From a virus: a DNA stretch of 10,919 bases. Positions 1 to 10,919 of the stretch are shown here, piece by piece. The translations under genes were made by a program, and so were the position numbers. Each line of letters starts with the position of its first letter. Position 1 is the stretch's first letter. Location: UHGV virus genome UHGV-0088977; one strand, written 5' to 3'. The notes beneath the pieces are model-generated. The model searched no databases and was not told where the DNA came from. It saw nothing but the letters and a program-made list of their open reading frames with translations.

Positions 1-50
1 AGTCATCGGGCATTATCTGAACATAAAACACTATCAATAAGTTAGAGTCA

Positions 51-599
51 TTACCGGAGGGGTAAATTATGATTTTGCTTTTCTTCATCATAATTTTTAA
101 TTTCCATCGATAACAAGAAGCTGGGGTTGTTATTTATTTTTTGGGATATTTCTGTAAGGTTAGACCAACAGTTTGTTTCGGATTTTATTATCTTTTCGCA
201 AATAGATGCAAGCGTAGGGTAATCTTCTACGTCTAATGGTCGAATATGCATAACTCTGTTTCTTATTAGAACGAGAGAGTCCAAATCTTTGGTAATGGAT
301 TTTATGAATTTATATATGTGATCGGGAATTTCCTTTCCATTGGAATTTATGATTTGGTAAGTATCTCCAAGGTCAAAATATTCTATTAAATCAATTGATT
401 CTATACCATCCATCACAGTGCCGAGGTCTTTTTCTAGTCTTCTTTTAGCTTTTTCTAAAAGTTCGTTTGGTAGTTTTATTTCTTTATCTTCTGGCTTCAA
501 GATGTAACTTACAACTATTGAACGGAGGTCTTCCTCTAAAGCGCAAAGAAGAGCATAAACTGTCATACGGGTAAGGTTAAATGCCATGAAACTCTCCAT
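51..599 (-). CDS. Hypothetical cargo protein, 182 aa (178 aa if started at the second ATG, 587), with a HEPN-like R-N-x3-H motif (LIRNRVMH); candidate RNase-type abortive-infection/toxin effector
   Basis: Long ORF in very AT-rich DNA, where chance ORFs of this length are unlikely; motif RNRVMH near residues 113-118 fits the HEPN Rx4-6H signature with the typical polar residue after Arg; GGAGAG Shine-Dalgarno lies upstream of the second ATG (MAFNL); sits immediately distal to the integrase. Confidence 0.55.
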   Translation of the reverse strand: MESFMAFNLTRMTVYALLCALEEDLRSIVVSYILKPEDKEIKLPNELLEKAKRRLEKDLGTVMDGIESIDLIEYFDLGDTYQIINSNGKEIPDHIYKFIKSITKDLDSLVLIRNRVMHIRPLDVEDYPTLASICEKIIKSETNCWSNLTEISQKINNNPSFLLSMEIKNYDEEKQNHNLPLR

Positions 600-905: not shown

Positions 906-2033
906 TTAACATGTTATCTTCATCCAGTTTTTCCCACGATCATCATCATAACGATCAGTTTGCTGTTGTGTTTTATGCCCAAGTAGCTTCCTAGTATCTA
1001 TCCCTTGTTCTTTGTACAGGCGTTCAGATAAAGACCTTTGCTCATGGAATGTGGCAGGTGAGCCATCCCCCCAGTCAATCCCTGCTAAATCCCGTGCTTT
1101 ACTAAAATTCATCGTCAATGTATTGGATTTAACCTGTGCACCACGTTTTGCCTGTGAGGTTGAACGGAAAAAATGCACTAAGTATGGACTGACTGCATAA
1201 TCACGGCAGCGGACTACTACATCGCGTAAACTCCAGCTAATCGCGTTGAGACGAAGGGAAAGCGGGATTGCGATTTTGCTCCCGGTCTTTTCCTGAATAA
1301 CATGGAGATGATCATCCCAAATATCACTAAATTTCATACGCGAGATATCACCTAACCTCTGGCCAGTAACCAGTGCTAACAGCATGGCATTCCCCATATA
1401 ACGATGACTGGCATCTGCGATATCAAAAATTTTTTGCCATTCTTCAAGACTTAACCGTTGTCGGGTAATTTTTCTTCTGGGTTGCTTCGTTGCAAGAGCA
1501 GGGTTATACCCTGGTGGAACTTCGCCGTAATGCTGTGCTTCTTTAAACACATCGATCAATACAGACCTTACGACCTGGGCCATTCTAGGCTGTCCAGCAG
1601 AGATATACTCATCAAGTAATTGTGCTATATCTCTGACATCAACGGCTGATATCAACTTCAGTCCTGCTCGTTCCCTGAGCAAGGATACTGGTTTGGCTTT
1701 CTGTTTATAAGTGTTGAGCTTTATATCGCCACTTTTCAGTCTGTCTTCCTGGATTGCTTGATAGCGATCTAACCAGGTTGACGTTGTGATTGCTTTTCCT
1801 TTGCTGGTTGCGATCCTGTCACTGATAGCTAGAATCTGGCGGGTTCTTTGCTCAGCTAGGCGTGTATTGGCCTCAGTGGCAATAGCAATGGCTTCAGCTT
1901 CGTTTGTGCCCAAAGAATGAAACTTCCCGGTCACTGGATGCTTATATCGCCAATAAACTTTATTTACTTTTCTGCTATAGAGCGGATACAAGTTCGGGAC
2001 TGAAACATTATTCTTACGTGGTCTGGCTGCCAT
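906..2033 (-). CDS. intE: Lambda-family tyrosine recombinase / phage integrase (375 aa), e14 IntE-like
   Basis: Translation aligns by eye to lambda Int: N-terminal arm-binding region (PNLY...), catalytic region LVTGQRLGDI (Arg), HEQRSLSERLY (His/Arg) and LLGHKTQQQTDRYDDDRG (Tyr nucleophile); 20-nt overlap with the upstream excisionase ORF. The intE symbol is from memory of e14 and is not verified. Confidence 0.93.
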   Translation of the reverse strand: MAARPRKNNVSVPNLYPLYSRKVNKVYWRYKHPVTGKFHSLGTNEAEAIAIATEANTRLAEQRTRQILAISDRIATSKGKAITTSTWLDRYQAIQEDRLKSGDIKLNTYKQKAKPVSLLRERAGLKLISAVDVRDIAQLLDEYISAGQPRMAQVVRSVLIDVFKEAQHYGEVPPGYNPALATKQPRRKITRQRLSLEEWQKIFDIADASHRYMGNAMLLALVTGQRLGDISRMKFSDIWDDHLHVIQEKTGSKIAIPLSLRLNAISWSLRDVVVRCRDYAVSPYLVHFFRSTSQAKRGAQVKSNTLTMNFSKARDLAGIDWGDGSPATFHEQRSLSERLYKEQGIDTRKLLGHKTQQQTDRYDDDRGKNWMKITC

Positions 2034-2259
2034 TACTTAAAATCCTTTGTAGAATAATAGAATCACTTTTCTTAATGACAGGAGTAACTAATTCTCCAAC
2101 TAACTCTGCGTCCTCACGTACTCGCCATAGTCGACCTTGTTTCATTGCCGGTGGACAAAATAAATTCTGCTTAGCATAACGACGCAATGTGGACACACTT
2201 GGAGGGTTACTCCTAAATTTTTCCGCAGCCCATTCCTCAAGTGTCAGCATTTGAAGCAT
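2014..2259 (-). CDS. xisE: Excisionase (lambda Xis-like, 81 aa)
   Basis: MLTLEEWAAEKF...PSVSTLRRYAK...FCPPAMKQGRLW resembles lambda Xis (YLTLQEWNARQ...SLETVRRWVRE...FPPPVKDGRE); GAGG Shine-Dalgarno 8 nt before the ATG at 2259; overlaps the int start, as is typical for xis-int. Confidence 0.85.
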   Translation of the reverse strand: MLQMLTLEEWAAEKFRSNPPSVSTLRRYAKQNLFCPPAMKQGRLWRVREDAELVGELVTPVIKKSDSIILQRILSNGSQTT

Positions 2260-4699: not shown

Positions 4700-5134
4700 A
4701 TGTCCGGTAATATCTATACGCTGTACAAATCCCACTGTGAAAATGTTGGAAAGTATCGGGGCATTGAAATCAGTGGGGTAGTGTCATCAGTCGAAATAAG
4801 CAAAGTTGAATCAAGGGCAACATTACTTACTCTTCTGGACCTTGTCTTACATGAGCACCGGAAGAAATTCGGCACTCCCTATAATCAGTTGAATGGGAAA
4901 AAAGCTCTGGTTCACCTTATTCTGATGAAGCATCACTGGATGCCAAAACAGATTAATGAGATGAAATTTGATGAACTTCTTCTTTCAATTCAGGATGAAC
5001 TCACGCTTGATAAAATAAGCGTAACCGCCCAGAAATTTTTAGATTATCGAGACTGGAGATCACAAATTCATCACTTTGATGATTTTGACGAAAATGAATG
5101 GGATCCTAATTTGTCTGCACAATATCTAAAGTAA
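4700..5134 (+). CDS. Hypothetical protein, 144 aa, AT-rich orphan (moron-like) gene of unknown function
   Basis: Uninterrupted 144-codon ORF in AT-rich DNA; Shine-Dalgarno AAGGA 6 nt upstream of the ATG; opposite orientation to the flanking leftward operon; plus-strand intrinsic terminator downstream at 5372-5397. No recognisable motif by eye. Confidence 0.7.
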   Translation: MSGNIYTLYKSHCENVGKYRGIEISGVVSSVEISKVESRATLLTLLDLVLHEHRKKFGTPYNQLNGKKALVHLILMKHHWMPKQINEMKFDELLLSIQDELTLDKISVTAQKFLDYRDWRSQIHHFDDFDENEWDPNLSAQYLK

Positions 5135-5559: not shown

Positions 5560-6186
5560 TTAGAGTTCGTATTGAACTCCTTTGACTACACCAATGATAA
5601 GGCAATTACCATTGATAGGGATGTTGGGATACCGAGGATTTAATGGCACTAAAAACTTTTGAGGGCCATCGATGACTAATTTTTTTACTGTAGCTTCGTT
5701 TGTTCCATCAAGTCGAGCGATGACTATTTTTCCATGACGAGGTTCTGCATCTGGATCTACAATCACTGTTGCGCCTTCTGGTATTGTTGGGAGGCCATTA
5801 GGGTTAGTCATGGAGTCACCTTTAACCTCTAATGCAAATGAGTTATCACCAATCTTTAATGATGTATCTACCCACTTGTCCACTTCACTAAACACTTCTG
5901 CTGCCCTGCACTCAGTAAACTGCCCAGCCTGAACCCACGATATTACAGGAACTCTGCGCATGTTTGTGACGAGTTTGCCTTCAAACTCAGCACCATAAAG
6001 AATGTAATCTATTGACGTATTGAAGAACTTCGCTAATTTCGAAAGTGCCTCCCCACCAGGGGTATTGATGTCTTTCTCCCAGTACCCCACAGCAACGTCG
6101 CTTACTCCACAAAATTTACCCAATTCTTTCTGGGACGTTCCGGTAACTCTTCTCAGAGCTTTTATACGCTGACCAACCGTTTCCAT
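5560..6186 (-). CDS. CI-like prophage repressor, XRE-type HTH fused to an S24 (LexA-like) autopeptidase domain, 208 aa
   Basis: N-terminal HTH (QKELGKFCGVSDVAVGYWEKD); C-terminal GDSM serine motif and VKKL lysine motif as in LexA/lambda CI; divergent from a Cro-like gene. Resembles e14 CohE by position, not verified. Confidence 0.9.
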   Translation of the reverse strand: METVGQRIKALRRVTGTSQKELGKFCGVSDVAVGYWEKDINTPGGEALSKLAKFFNTSIDYILYGAEFEGKLVTNMRRVPVISWVQAGQFTECRAAEVFSEVDKWVDTSLKIGDNSFALEVKGDSMTNPNGLPTIPEGATVIVDPDAEPRHGKIVIARLDGTNEATVKKLVIDGPQKFLVPLNPRYPNIPINGNCLIIGVVKGVQYEL

Positions 6187-6283
6187 AGGAGCACCATTTC
6201 TTGAATTGCTAAGTAATCTTAGTTTTTATTGACCAAAGATAGATTTGTAATTAGCATCTAATAAAACTTAGTTTGGAGGGCGT
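6187..6283. promoter_or_regulatory. Divergent repressor/cro promoter-operator region (PRM/PR-like)
   Basis: 97-bp AT-rich spacer between the divergent repressor and cro starts; near-palindromic motifs ATCTTAGTT (6216-6224) and AACTTAGTT (6265-6273) and inverted repeat CTAAGTAATCTTAG (6208-6221); candidate -35 TTGACC at 6229-6234; GGAGGG Shine-Dalgarno before the cro ATG. Confidence 0.6.
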
Positions 6284-6484
6284 ATGACAACTGACGATAT
6301 CGAAAGCTACTTCGGCAGTATTGAGAAAGTTGCTGCTTTTTTCGGCATAACAACTGAAGCCGTTTATCAGTGGCGAAACCGTCCGGGCCAGTTAATTCCA
6401 AAAGGACGTGCAGCAGAAGCTGCATATAGAACTTGCGGACGGTTGCCATTTAAACCTGAGCTTTATGAAAAATCTAATGGATAA
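6284..6484 (+). CDS. Cro-like small HTH regulator (66 aa)
   Basis: Small basic protein with an HTH-like segment (VAAFFGITTEAVYQWRNRPGQ); strong Shine-Dalgarno; divergent from the repressor; same length as the e14 Cro-like gene as I recall it. Confidence 0.8.
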   Translation: MTTDDIESYFGSIEKVAAFFGITTEAVYQWRNRPGQLIPKGRAAEAAYRTCGRLPFKPELYEKSNG

Positions 6485-7073
6485 ATCGATTAACAGAAAC
6501 CACAGAACGATGAGGTTAACCGTGGGTAAGCATCACTGGAAAGTAGAAAAACAGCCTGAGTGGTACGTGAAAGCTGTCAGAAAAACTATCGCAGCGTTGC
6601 CGGGTGGTTACGCTGAAGCAGCTGACTGGCTGGATGTAACAGAAAACGCATTATTTAACCGCCTTCGTGCCGATGGCGATCAGATTTTCCCGCTGGGATG
6701 GGCAATGATTTTGCAACGTGCTGGTGGAACTCACTTCATTGCTGACGCTGTGGCGCAGTCTGCAAATGGCGTCTTTGTGTCTCTTCCTGACGTCGAGGAT
6801 GTGGACAACGCCGATATTAACCAGCGCCTGCTGGAAGTCATTGAACAGATTGGCAGTTATTCCAGACAGATTCGTTCGGCAATCGAAGACGGTGTGGTGG
6901 AACCGCATGAGAAGACAGCAATTAACGACGAGCTGTATCTCTCAATTTCGAAGCTGCAGGAGCATGCAGCACTGGTCTACAAAATCTTTTGCATTTCAGA
7001 AAGTAATGACGCCCGCGAGTGTGCAGCTCCGGGCGCCGTGGCGTGTCGTGACTGTGGAGAAACTAACGCATGA
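6465..7073 (+). CDS. Early regulatory protein, YmfL/YdaT-like by position and size (about 200 aa); start uncertain (6465 or 6477)
   Basis: ORF immediately after and overlapping the cro stop, suggesting translational coupling; no clear Shine-Dalgarno; ATGA overlap with the next gene. Assignment rests on synteny with e14 as I recall it. Confidence 0.6.
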
Positions 7074-7408
7074 ACAGTTTAACAACACACTACCGTCGCT
7101 CGCAACTGATTGCGCTTCCTGTACCGGGTGGAAAAGCGAAGGTGGAGTATTGCTATGCAGTTAATGTACCAGGTGACAGGGAAATTGTAACCCACAGCTT
7201 TGCTGAGTGGGCTGTGGGTGATTTCAACCGGCAGAAGGAGACAGTCCTTTGCGACAAGTTAACCGCTGGTTCAAAGATCACTACGGAGTGCCCGTCAGAG
7301 TCATTCGTTGGGAGCCGGAAACACAACGGGTTATCTACCTCCGCGAAGGCTATGAGCATGAGTGCTTCAGCCCGCTCGAACAGTTTCGTCGTAAATTCAG
7401 GGAAATAG
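7070..7408 (+). CDS. ymfM: YmfM-like protein (112 aa)
   Basis: ATGA stop/start overlap with the preceding gene; length equals that of e14 YmfM as I recall it; sequence identity not verified. Confidence 0.55.
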
Positions 7409-7417
7409 AGGTCGGTC

Positions 7418-7972
7418 ATGAGCACTAAATTAACCGGCTATGTATGGGATGGTTGCGCTGCATCAGGCATGAAATTATCCAGCGTGGCAATTATGGCCCG
7501 CCTGGCTGATTTCAGTAATGACGAAGGTGTGTGCTGGCCATCAATTGAAACCATTGCCCGTCAGATTGGCGCGGGGATGAGTACCGTCAGGACGGCTATC
7601 GCACGGCTGGAAGCAGAAGGCTGGTTAACGCGTAAGGCGCGTCGCCAGGGTACGGGGGCAGGCTGTATTGCGCGTGCTGACTTTGAAGCCCGACAACGGG
7701 CGGCGCGGACGGATGAAACCACCTATGTGGTGCAGGGCTGGCGACAGGGTAACGGTACGCTGTGGCAGCCCAACCAGCGGGTGATTGTCTTTGATCCGGT
7801 CTGTGGTTTCGACAATACCGAACTGCTTGTTTCGGAAGTCACGTTTACTCAGGACCAGAACGGCACCCTGACGGAAATCCGTGTCGGCCCGCCTGATGCT
7901 TATCTGCCTGAACCCGAAGCCCCCGGCGCGCGGAAAAAGAAAAAAGCCAGAGTACAGGAGGACCCGTTCTGA
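7418..7972 (+). CDS. Apparently chimeric ORF (184 aa): N-terminal HTH/replication-initiator-like domain joined to a C-terminal fragment resembling the end of a Mu gp44-type baseplate hub protein; probable deletion-fusion
   Basis: N-terminus (SSVAIMARLADFSNDEGVCWPSIETIARQIGAGMSTVRTAIARLEAEGWL) looks like a phage O/HTH protein; the composition changes around residue 95, and the C-terminus runs straight into the baseplate V gene with TGATG stop/start coupling. Confidence 0.6.
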   Translation: MSTKLTGYVWDGCAASGMKLSSVAIMARLADFSNDEGVCWPSIETIARQIGAGMSTVRTAIARLEAEGWLTRKARRQGTGAGCIARADFEARQRAARTDETTYVVQGWRQGNGTLWQPNQRVIVFDPVCGFDNTELLVSEVTFTQDQNGTLTEIRVGPPDAYLPEPEAPGARKKKKARVQEDPF

Positions 7973-8520
7973 TGAGGACGATTGAAGCCATGCAGCGACA
8001 ACTCCTCGGCCTGATTGGGCGGGCCGTGGTGAAAAGTATCAGTGCCGCCACGAAATGTCAGACCGTGGATGTGTCCCTGATTGCCGGTGAACCCAAAGCC
8101 GGGGTTGAACATCTTGAACCCTACGGTTTTACCGCAAGGGCAAACAGCGGTGCGGAAGCGGTGGTGTTGTTTCCGGATGGCGACCGTTCTCATGCGGTGG
8201 TTGTTACGGTGTCGGACCGGCGCTACCGCCTGAAAGGGCTGCAGACGGGTGAGGTGGCTGTCTATGACGATCAGGGGCAGTCCGTGACGCTGACCCGGGA
8301 GGGGATCGTGGTGGACGGTGCAGGTAAAACGATCACGTTTCGCAATGCACCTGAAGCACGTTTTGAAATGGACCTGGAAGTGACAGGACAGGTGAAAGAC
8401 CTGTGCGACTCCGGCGGCACCACCATGTCAGCGATGCGGCTTGCCTATAACGGGCATCGTCACAGAGAGAACGGTCAGGGCAGTAACACCGACAAACCTG
8501 ATAAAGCGATGGAGGCATGA
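7972..8520 (+). CDS. Baseplate assembly protein V / spike-like (Mu gp45-like), 182 aa
   Basis: Position in the baseplate block; C-terminal NGHRH (HxH) motif as found at the apex of phage spike proteins; overlapping stop/start with flanking genes. Confidence 0.75.
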   Translation: MRTIEAMQRQLLGLIGRAVVKSISAATKCQTVDVSLIAGEPKAGVEHLEPYGFTARANSGAEAVVLFPDGDRSHAVVVTVSDRRYRLKGLQTGEVAVYDDQGQSVTLTREGIVVDGAGKTITFRNAPEARFEMDLEVTGQVKDLCDSGGTTMSAMRLAYNGHRHRENGQGSNTDKPDKAMEA

Positions 8521-8945
8521 TGGAACTGTGGCTGACGGTGAACGGTAAACGCACCTGCGCCAGCGCACCGCTGGATCCGCTGACCCGCGCCGTGGTGATT
8601 TCCCTGTTTACCTGGCGGCGGGCGGAGCCTGATGACAACGCCGACGTCCCGATGGGATGGTGGGGGGATACCTGGCCTGCGGTACAGAATGACCGTTACG
8701 GCTCCCGACTGTGGCTGCTTCAGCGCAGCAAACTGACCAATCAGCTGGTGCAGACGGTAAGGGGGTATATCCGCGAATGCCTGCAATGGATGATTGATGA
8801 CGGCGTGGTGTCCCGTATTGATCTGGATATCCGCCGCACCGGGATTAATGAACTGGGTAACAGTATCACTCTCTGGCGTCGTGACGGACCGGTAATGATT
8901 TCTTTTGATGATCTGTGGAGTGCGATAACGCATGGCGGACAGTGA
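8517..8945 (+). CDS. Phage GP46-family baseplate protein (Mu gp46-like), 142 aa
   Basis: Sits between the V-like and J-like genes; contains the GWWGD motif I recall as typical of GP46-family proteins; ATGATG overlap with the upstream gene. Confidence 0.75.
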   Translation: MMELWLTVNGKRTCASAPLDPLTRAVVISLFTWRRAEPDDNADVPMGWWGDTWPAVQNDRYGSRLWLLQRSKLTNQLVQTVRGYIRECLQWMIDDGVVSRIDLDIRRTGINELGNSITLWRRDGPVMISFDDLWSAITHGGQ

Positions 8946-9990
8946 ATTTCAGCGCCCGACGCTGGCAGAAAATATCAGTATGCTCCGTAACGATTTATTC
9001 GCCAGGCTGGACGTCAGCGACACGCTCCGGCGCATGGATGAAGACGTGCGGGCAAAGGTGTATGCGGCAGCGCTGCATACGGTTTACGGGTACATCGATT
9101 ATCTGGCAATGAATATGCTGCCTGACCTGTGCGATGAGTCCTGGCTGGCGCGACATGCTGCGATGAAACGGTGTCCGCGCAAGGGGGCCACGGCTGCCAG
9201 CGGGTATATGCGCTGGGAAGGTGTCAGCGATGGCCTGAAGGTGACCGCCGGGAGTGTTATTCAGCGCGATGACCTGGTTCAGTACACGGCAACTGCCGAT
9301 GCAACCAGCTCCGGTGGTGTCCTGCGTGTGCCGATCACTTGCTCAACTACAGGCGCGGTCGGTAACGCTGACGACGGTACGGCATTAATCCTGGTCACGC
9401 CGGTGAATGGTCTGCCGTCTTCCGGTGTGGCTGACACCCTGACAGGCGGATTTGATACTGAAGAGCTGGAAACGTGGCGCGCCCGCGTCATTGAGCGGTA
9501 TTACTGGACGCCTCAGGGCGGGGCTGACGGGGACTATGTCGTCTGGGCTAAAGAAGTGCCCGGCATTACCCGCGCATGGACATACCGACACTGGATGGGA
9601 ACGGGGACTGTCGGTGTGATGATTGCCAGCAGTGACCTGATTAATCCCATTCCGGAAGAGTCAACGGAAACGGCGGCAAGACAACATATCGAGCCACTGG
9701 CCCCGGTGGCAGGCTCTGATTTGTATGTATTCAGGCCGGTGGCGCATAAAGTGGATTTTCATATCCGCGTGACGCCGGACACACCGGAAATACGGGCTGC
9801 CATCACCGCCGAGTTGCGTTCGTTCCTGCTGCGTGATGGTTATCCGCAGGGAGAACTGAAGGTGTCGCGTATCAGTGAAGCGATTTCCGGTGCGAACGGG
9901 GAATACAGCCATCAGTTGCTTGCACCGGCAGACAATATCTCCATTGCAAAAAATGAACTGGCGGTACTGGGGACGATTTCATGGACGTGA
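8932..9990 (+). CDS. Baseplate J-like protein (Mu gp47-like), 352 aa
   Basis: Size and position in the baseplate block; overlapping starts and stops with its neighbours; resembles e14 JayE-type proteins by context. Confidence 0.8.
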
Positions 9991-10565
9991 CAAACGATGA
10001 TTACATCCGTCTGTTGTCGGCACTGTTGCCCCCCGGTCCGGCGTGGTCAGCCAGCGATCCGGCGATTGCCGGTGCGGCACCGTCATTAACCCGCGTTCAT
10101 CAGCGTGCGGATGCCCTGATGCGGGAGCTGGATCCGCGCACCACCACTGAACTGATAAACCGCTGGGAGCGTCTGTGCGGTCTGCCGGATGAATGTATTC
10201 CGGCGGGAACGCAGACCCTTCGCCAGCGTCAGCAACGGCTGGATGCGAAGGTTAATCTGGCGGGCGGCATCAATGAGGATTTTTACCTTGCACAGCTTGC
10301 TGCCCTGGGCAGACCAGACGCCACCATCACGCGATACGACAAAAGCACGTTCACCTGCTCATCGGCCTGTACTGACGCAGTGAATGCGCCGGAATGGCGG
10401 TATTACTGGCAGGTCAACATGCCAGCCGCCACCAACACCACCTGGATGACATGTGGCGATCCCTGTGATTCCGCACTGCGTATCTGGGGCGACACCGTTG
10501 TCGAGTGCGTGCTTAACAAACTCTGCCCTTCGCATACCTACGTAATTTTTAAATATCCGGAGTAA
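9981..10565 (+). CDS. ymfQ: Tail protein, YmfQ-like (DUF2313 / Mu gp48-like), 194 aa
   Basis: Length identical to e14 YmfQ as I recall it; lies between the J-like gene and the tail-fibre gene; translationally coupled. Confidence 0.75.
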
Positions 10566-10567
10566 TC

Positions 10568-10919
10568 CATGCATCGTATAGACACGAAAACCGCGCAGAA
10601 GGATAAGTTCGGCGCGGGTAAGAACGGTTTTACCCGTGGTAACCCCCAGACCGGCACACCTGCCACCGATCTGGATGATGACTACTTTGACATGTTGCAG
10701 GAAGAACTTTGTAGCGTTGTTGAGGCATCCGGTGCCAGTCTGGAGAAGGCGCGGCACGACCAGCTGCTTACCGCACTTCGTGCGCTGCTGTTAAGCCGCA
10801 AGAATCCGTTTGGCGATATCAAATCGGATGGCACGGTGAAAACGGCTCTCGAAAACCTTGGTCTGGGAGAAGGCTCTGCATTACCCGTTGGTGTGCCTGT
10901 TCCGTGGCCTTCCACCACT
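10568..10919 (+). CDS. Side tail fibre protein, N-terminal part (truncated by the window end)
   Basis: [47 protein letters not shown] is the conserved N-terminal anchor domain of lambdoid/Mu-type side tail fibres; GGAG Shine-Dalgarno before the ATG at 10568. Confidence 0.8.

Follow-up and report, generated by a model that had tools for sequence, protein, structure and literature searches.

A chimeric open reading frame at a deletion joint in an e14-like prophage, and the recurrent breakpoint in its initiator gene

The 10,919-nucleotide stretch of viral DNA analysed here (the window) carries, between its early genes and its baseplate genes, an open reading frame (ORF) of 184 codons that begins like a replication initiator and ends like a baseplate protein. 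The locus thereby raises the question of whether this ORF is a gene in its own right or the trace of a deletion and, if the latter, how its two ends came to be joined. A sequence-only reading had taken it to be a chimera that marks a deletion joint. The ORF (Table 1) runs from an ATG at 7418 to a TGA at 7970-7972, and a Shine-Dalgarno sequence, GAGG, lies at 7408-7411, 6 bases ahead of the start codon. Pfam recognised two domains: HTH_36 (E 2e-11), spanning residues 23-70, and GpP_4th (E 4e-19), the last of the four domains of the protein encoded by Mu gene P, spanning residues 84-165. In PHROGs, residues 1-80 corresponded to positions 1-80 of the 298 in phrog_391 ('replication initiation O-like') and residues 77-182 to phrog_177 ('baseplate hub'), and among solved structures only residues 81-173 could be aligned, namely to residues 257-348 of Mu gp44 (1WRU/9KI1). 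No single family covered the 184-aa protein from end to end in Pfam, PHROGs or the solved-structure alignments, so a full-length match to one family, which would speak against a chimera, was not seen. The proposed initiator-like start is thus a fragment of an O-like initiator, and the proposed hub-like end corresponds to the terminal domain of a hub like Mu gp44.

Neither fragment amounts to a complete member of its family. Baseplate hubs of this type have four domains (GpP-like_1st, Gp44-like_2nd, 3rd and GpP_4th) in approximately 360-380 aa; the junction ORF holds GpP_4th alone, which makes it a fragment and not a hub in function. Likewise, full-length members of PHROG 391 include a repeat-encoding linker and a C-terminal domain, and the junction ORF stops at position 80 of 298, with the repeats absent. 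We consider it best annotated as a junction pseudogene, neither a regulator nor a baseplate protein. The translational coupling to the V-like gene that had been pointed out does exist as a TGATG overlap; it should be underlined, however, that this is the ancestral gpP/gp45 arrangement, already present in intact phages, and that the fusion did not create it.

Table 1. Features of the window (positions in the window; L003 is the intact reference prophage)
Feature	Position	Strand	Basis or remark
IS1 end	1-55		Inserted in 775-aa NB-ARC/TPR gene, located between icd and intE in relatives
NB-ARC/TPR gene remnant ORF, first 182 codons left	51-599	-	Comparison with relatives
intE and xisE, intact	906-2259	-	ORF list, annotation of relatives
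LexA-family repressor (HTH_3 + S24 peptidase), intact	5560-6186	-	Domain matches
PR-like promoter before cro, TTGACC-17-TAGCAT	6229-6257	+	Consensus match only
Cro-like regulator	6284-6484	+	Domain match
YmfL (CII/CP76-like)	6522-7073	+	Domain match, annotation
YmfM ORF (7070-7408) and overlapping DUF4222 ORF (7249-7428), directly upstream of junction ORF	7070-7428	+	PHROGs, Pfam
184-aa junction ORF, O-like initiator N-terminus and gpP/gp44 C-terminus in frame	7418-7972	+	ORF call, Pfam, PHROGs
Left fragment, codons 1-78 of 313-codon O-like initiator gene (winged-helix HTH_36)	7418-7652	+	100% identity to L003 11361-11595
Joint, crossover in TA 7651-7652 inside imperfect 6-of-7 microhomology CAGG[G/C]TA	7646-7652		Alignment to both parents
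Right fragment, codons 254-359 of 359-codon Mu gp44/gpP-type hub gene (fourth domain and basic tail)	7653-7972	+	Pfam, structure and parent alignments
Second copy of hot-spot core CAGGGTAAC, native to gpP gene	7745-7753	+	Breakpoint in another chimera, P0140
Stop/start overlap TGATG with gp45 (V-like) gene	7970-7974	+	Sequence; native in intact phages
Mu gp45-type baseplate spike/assembly protein V	7972-8520	+	PF06890
GP46 family baseplate protein	8517-8945	+	Domain match
Baseplate J / gp47	8932-9990	+	Domain match
YmfQ / Mu gp48, full length in window, cut by second joint in ML35 lineage	9981-10565	+	Domain match, alignment

When 5,426 complete E. coli genomes were searched by megablast, single halves of the ORF were found in thousands of them, and both halves within one prophage in strain OkiPb01675. 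This e14-like prophage, located at icd and apparently complete, served as the intact reference (locus L003). Its initiator gene (L003 11361-12302) has 313 codons and matches phrog_391 over the full length; its hub gene (L003 34883-35962) has 359 codons and the four-domain architecture, and the product can be aligned over its whole length to Mu gp44 (E 1e-51). Up to and including 7652 the window has exactly the sequence of the left parent, and from 7651 onwards it follows the right parent (98-99.5% identity), with one mismatch at 7650 inside the 6-of-7 match; the exchange therefore lies within the TA at 7651-7652. This breakpoint lies just beyond the end of the HTH_36 match. The reading frame was kept, with the initiator contributing G78 (GGT) and the hub gene T79 (ACG), so that the product consists of initiator residues 1-78 followed by hub residues 254-359. 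In the reference prophage the two parents are collinear and both on the plus strand, with the ends of the deletion at 11595 and 35643 and 34 coding sequences in between; the DNA missing from the window is L003 11596-35642, or 24,047 bp. Alignment of the two halves to the O-like initiator and the Mu gp44-like hub thus places the breakpoint at the nucleotide level, and alignment of the whole locus to the intact e14-like prophage confirms that the ORF coincides exactly with a deletion joint, as had been claimed.

Compared with the reference, the deletion took away 34 complete genes, the 3' three quarters of the initiator gene and the first 70% of the hub gene. The complete genes are those for a methyltransferase, RusA, KilA-N, DUF968, HNH and Q, a PerC-like and a LexA-like gene, and a defence cassette; lysis is represented by holin, endolysin and spanins, packaging and head by both terminase subunits, portal, protease, capsid and head-tail adaptors, and the tail by sheath, tube, chaperone and tape measure. 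The gene for the DNA-circularisation protein was lost as well. The intact initiator gene also contains six copies of a 15-bp repeat, the first of them 54 bp past the breakpoint, that form a candidate origin; repeats inside the gene are the layout expected of the internal origin of an O-type gene. No copy of these repeats occurs in the window. The lost modules are absent both from the window and from the entire icd-to-icd' element of strain ML35, the closest complete genome, so that the earlier statement that everything between the early replication genes and the baseplate is missing holds for both. Since the whole block from the remainder of the initiator through the tape measure and circularisation genes has gone, the element on its own would not be expected to make virions, in agreement with what the sequence-only reading had proposed: with origin repeats, packaging, head and tail genes lost, it is predicted to be able neither to replicate nor to form particles.

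What the window retains is int, xis, the early-left genes, the S24 repressor, cro, ymfL, ymfM, the junction ORF and gp45-gp48. Its assignment to the e14-like prophages follows from intE/xisE, the S24 repressor, cro, ymfL, ymfM and the gp44-48 gene order, as well as from 99.9% identity to prophages located at icd; icd itself lies outside the window. Directly upstream of the junction ORF, the segment 7070-7428 holds two plus-strand ORFs in different frames, each with family support: the 112-aa YmfM ORF is a full-length match to phrog_1170, and the 59-aa ORF matches Pfam DUF4222 (E 9e-19). The RefSeq annotation of ML35 gives only the DUF4222 ORF at this overlap. In K-12, YmfM is an SOS-inducible division inhibitor. 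At the right end of the window, a Pin crossover (pix) site, AAAACC TT GGTCTGGGAGAA, at 10853-10878 forms the start of the invertible fibre segment; the similarity to the reference and to K-12 switches at this site, which fits another orientation or allele of the fibre segment.

Taken together, the 184-aa ORF is very probably an accidental by-product of a deletion that joined the initiator gene to the hub gene in an e14-like prophage. This account builds on the observed parents, breakpoint, frame and gene loss, and on the occurrence of the joint in many independent assemblies (see below). According to it, a temperate e14-like phage, with lambdoid early genes and a Mu-like contractile tail, would have integrated at icd, after which one breakage-and-rejoining event would have removed the 24,047 bp and joined the TA at initiator codon 78/79 to the TA at codon 253/254 of the gp44/gpP hub gene. 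The joint would be in frame by chance, and the start codon and ribosome-binding site of the initiator would now drive a 184-aa hybrid, whose stop codon still overlaps the start of gp45 in the native TGATG. The event would also have placed the hybrid and four baseplate genes in the repressor-controlled early rightward operon. No terminator-like site was found on the plus strand between the PR-like promoter and the junction ORF, so these five genes now appear to belong to the early operon, and they would presumably be transcribed from PR on SOS induction. The hybrid itself probably has no required function.

The left end of the deletion is not peculiar to the window, since the site CAGGGTA/ACC (codon 78/79 of the initiator gene; the slash marks the breakpoint) is a recurrent deletion end. 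In the ymfN gene of K-12 e14, which has the large terminase gene as its partner, the initiator part ends at L003 11594 (...CAGGGT/GATGG...), one nucleotide from the window endpoint. A 400-bp probe across the site gave a second match in K-12 strains that starts exactly there and represents yfdO of CPS-53, the C-terminal part of the same initiator gene; in this case the initiator-gene TA of the window's joint forms the right end of one of the two deletions in CPS-53. The alignment of CPS-53 (L028, record 2,472,000-2,474,000) to an intact e14-like phage consists of three blocks, with TA/TAC at both joints, which indicates that CPS-53 is an e14-like remnant with two internal deletions.

Recurrence was surveyed by searching a protein collection with initiator residues 1-78; 129 matches, none longer than 137 aa, were fetched, and the 84 with the exact first 40 residues were compared, so that the evidence is mostly at the protein level. 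Among these 84, divergence from the intact initiator set in after residue 78 in 37 clusters and after residue 79 in 7. A second left hot spot is evident after residue 60/61 (11+5 clusters; ...ACGGCTA/TCG...), and all other positions accounted for 0-2 clusters each. Initiator codons 41-86 contain six TA dinucleotides, and those used as breakpoints all lie in a GGNTANC context. The chimera tails were derived from RusA, DUF968, the methyltransferase, the small and large terminase subunits, sheath, gp46, ymfQ, IS3 orfA and the initiator's own C-terminus, some in frame and some out of frame, and one came from the opposite strand, which implies an inversion. At least 14 of the chimeras are from NCBI assemblies, one of them a finished genome whose joint, CAGGGTA/TCACC, was confirmed in the DNA by comparison with the parent, GGCATA/TCACC. 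The initiator gene is present in about 2,000 of the 5,426 complete E. coli genomes, and a literature search retrieved no published description of the hot spot. On the gpP side, the recurrence test revealed no other partner at the position of the window's joint.

Some further rearrangements touch the same site. In a thrW-type relative (L030 10234-18390) the hot spot adjoins the J gene in reverse-complement orientation; the block from baseplate to sheath is inverted, and the sheath gene contains an additional GGTA joint. No reciprocal joint was found for the one inversion on its contig, which is too short, and none of the complete genomes carries this inversion. A divergent initiator homologue (P0069, 87% identical) also breaks after the equivalent of residue 78 (...RRNG/K...), and the hot spot may thus not be confined to one allele.

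The joints have a number of properties in common. T/A was found at the exchange point in 21 of 27 unique partners (p ~4e-7, given the A), and about a fifth of the joints lacked TA. With TA at codon boundaries of the same phage as background, 19 of 26 unique sites had G at -2 (background 0.38) and 20 had C at +2 (background 0.41), each with p 2-3e-4; G at -3 and C at -5 were also enriched among these sites. The composite motif over the 26 sites is a quasi-palindrome, C-N-G-G-N-T-A-N-C-C-N-G. Partner sites favour GGNTANCC and nearly always share the T/A, and five right sites were common to both left hot spots, compared with 0.2 expected (p 3e-6). The products take base -1 from the left site and base +1 from the right site. 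In the window's joint and in most of the others a single TA is kept and the flanking sequences switch exactly there, as expected of a conservative exchange.

Equivalent positions at both sites, no gain or loss of bases, deletion as well as inversion, and recurrent partners together look like conservative exchange by a sequence-preferring enzyme. The pattern suggests that the window's joint belongs to a class of site-preferring, conservative breakage-and-rejoining events with a putative agent. We lean slightly towards the view that the window deletion belongs with others in e14-like prophages that arose by nucleotide-conservative exchange, centred on TA, between GGNTANCC-like sites, and that the initiator site dominates this recurrent set. 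A more specific proposal, which we make tentatively and with less than even confidence, is that e14-like prophages are repeatedly disabled by a sequence-preferring conservative activity at TA within the quasi-palindromic motif, with codon 78/79 as the dominant site. The fusion in the window, YmfN, YfdO and at least 50 other chimeras would then be products of a single mechanism of prophage decay, with a two-base or flush cut as made by a serine-type recombinase or by a TA-staggered nuclease together with a ligase.

Several candidate agents were considered and rejected. The Pin invertase acts at a TT core with ACC/GGT half-sites, and both differ from the hot spot. The repressor/Cro operators are unsuitable as looping sites, being AT-rich (CTAAG-N4-CTTAG). 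A specific integrase is not indicated, as the backbones in which the hot spot is used carry four different ones, and a four-base stagger of the gyrase type is contradicted by the bases at -1 and +1 in the products. IS30 and other IS elements were also considered, and no IS remnant was found at any joint.

The strongest rival to a sequence-preferring activity is ordinary, enzyme-independent illegitimate recombination, by microhomology end joining or template switching, in which the initiator site would repeatedly suffer a break or a stalled fork and the TA would simply be the last bases of the fixed end. The short microhomologies (2-7 nt) agree with this, as does the position of the hot spot 54 bp upstream of the repeat array, where forks might stall or break; Bierne, Michel and Ehrlich reportedly described deletion hot spots at sites of arrest or nicking, such as terB and the M13 and pC194 origins, which would provide a precedent for a fragile site. 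However, the partners are similar to the hot spot to the right of the TA (C at +2) as well as to its left, even though the product does not retain the right-hand bases of the left site. Moreover, the crossover stays within the TA despite a longer identity (CCGC) directly to its right, the initiator site serves as a right partner as well (in CPS-53), and there is an inversion among the joints. GGTA or TA is also found at joints between other genes, namely those of K-12 beeE/jayE, joint B of CPS-53, joint 2 of ML35 and the sheath joint of L030. We thus regard illegitimate recombination as rather unlikely to account for the whole pattern; an enzyme making a flush or two-base cut looks like a better explanation than random microhomology joining, with a fragile site near the origin as a serious rival.

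A different question is whether the hybrid, once formed, was retained because it is useful. The whole joint was present in one of the 5,426 complete E. coli genomes, that of ML35, and the exact 184-aa protein on at least 58 contigs (102 index blocks) of a large protein collection; the protein also has GenBank accessions from several isolates besides ML35. A 37-mer across the joint gave no match in GTDB representatives or IMG/VR. The identical protein lies beside three different integrases, at icd, proA and sbcB. In the two loci with integrases adjoining proBA and sbcB (L008 and L009) both the fusion and the region to the right of window position 5005 are identical, and the early-left arms are divergent or rearranged; either the deleted core was exchanged between prophage backbones by homologous recombination, or the contigs are metagenome chimeras. 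Such a distribution, together with the kept frame, the native start and Shine-Dalgarno sequence and the surviving HTH_36 match, is what one might expect of a selected functional protein, for example an HTH-based regulator or an immunity or exclusion factor, that has spread through benefit to the host. Nevertheless, one third of random joints would be in frame, and the site has yielded dozens of related chimeras that either lost the frame or carry pieces of unrelated genes; the HTH_36 match, moreover, ends at residue 70, only 8 residues ahead of the breakpoint. In addition, all copies are identical in DNA (eight loci from NCBI, ENA and Logan), which gives no sign of long-term conservation, and a single complete genome in the whole set speaks against wide success. 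A selected function for the hybrid is therefore very improbable. That the two halves are not contiguous at all is practically excluded: RefSeq does divide the ML35 copy into two features, a pseudogene fragment with an HTH and a baseplate protein of 135 aa, but the identical joint occurs in one finished chromosome as well as in independent assemblies from NCBI, ENA and Logan, and no assembler would be misled by so very short a stretch of shared sequence.

Returning to the deletion as an accident of prophage decay, the comparison with relatives also bears on its age. The window differs from ML35 by 10 SNPs, by the IS1 end and by an intact ymfQ and fibre gene past 10482. ML35 and all eight retrieved fusion loci have a second joint at this position (= L001 17583; ...CTGCGTA/CAGCAGG...), which fuses ymfQ to a lambda-P-like fragment, with ren, emrE and ybcK behind it. 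This joint is not present in the window, which thus represents the earlier, single-deletion state. The ymfQ site of the second joint is also the right partner of another initiator chimera (P0023). Four of the 10 differences from the ML35 lineage fall in a 28-base stretch inside the gp47/J gene (9246-9273), suggesting a short gene-conversion patch. Between the left arm of the window and the intact prophage of OkiPb01675 there are 9 differences in approximately 7,600 bases (99.9% identity), which indicates that the deletion is recent and makes the comparison uninformative on selection; with so young a deletion, the intact frames of the retained genes are no evidence of selection either. The element had been proposed to be a domesticated remnant whose cargo is likely to benefit the host. 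This view is unsupported, though not disproved: the left arm is nearly identical to that of an intact phage, and the one obvious cargo gene, the NB-ARC/TPR gene beside int, is truncated by IS1 in the window. The full-length NB-ARC/TPR protein gave a weak PADLOC match to the candidate defence family PDC-M34B (E 6e-10).

The fusion itself is ordinary; the noteworthy part is a deletion hot spot that is precise to the nucleotide and widely reused. If many independent lineages truly delete from one nucleotide with TA-motif partners, the inactivation of this widespread prophage family would not be random erosion. It would instead follow a defined molecular route, open to reconstitution and genetic dissection, and the origin of the cryptic prophages e14 and CPS-53 would become directly testable.

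The parents of the junction ORF have well-known relatives. The intact right parent aligns from end to end with the Mu gp44 (gene P) hub (PDB 1WRU/9KI1; homologue in MuSo2, 3CDD), whereas the junction ORF holds the last of the four Pfam domains and cannot be a hub. Similarly, the intact left parent is a full-length match to the lambda O-type initiators (PHROG 391; HTH_36), with the 15-bp repeat array in its linker, whereas the junction ORF keeps the first quarter, and both the repeats and the C-terminal domain are gone. As to the breakpoint, deletions with one fixed endpoint are known from Int-promoted recombination of lambda attP with secondary sites, from pseudo-sites of serine recombinases and from the hot spots at terB and at the origins of M13 and pC194. 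The initiator hot spot resembles these systems in that the endpoint recurs with nucleotide precision, has many partners and is resembled by them. It differs in not being an att site, in being used beside four integrases and in its sequence, the Pin site having a TT core and another half-site.

The closest parallels are found in E. coli K-12. The YfdO region of CPS-53 is likewise an e14-like remnant with a deletion end at the same initiator TA; there, however, the site is the right partner, so that the C-terminal part of the initiator was kept and the immunity region lost. YmfN of e14 (b1149; oweE + aaaE), annotated as 'chimeric replication protein/phage terminase', consists of the same 78 codons of the same initiator gene in an in-frame deletion ORF, with left breakpoints (CAGGGT/ versus CAGGGTA/) that are 1 nt apart. 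The two differ in partner and extent, the deletion into the large terminase gene covering ~10.6 kb in K-12 and that into gpP 24 kb in the window, and in K-12 e14 a second joint removed the genes from portal to J, whereas the window keeps the gpP remainder, gp45, gp46, J and YmfQ. The junction ORF is thus a close analogue of K-12 YmfN and, like it, an ordinary scar of prophage decay.
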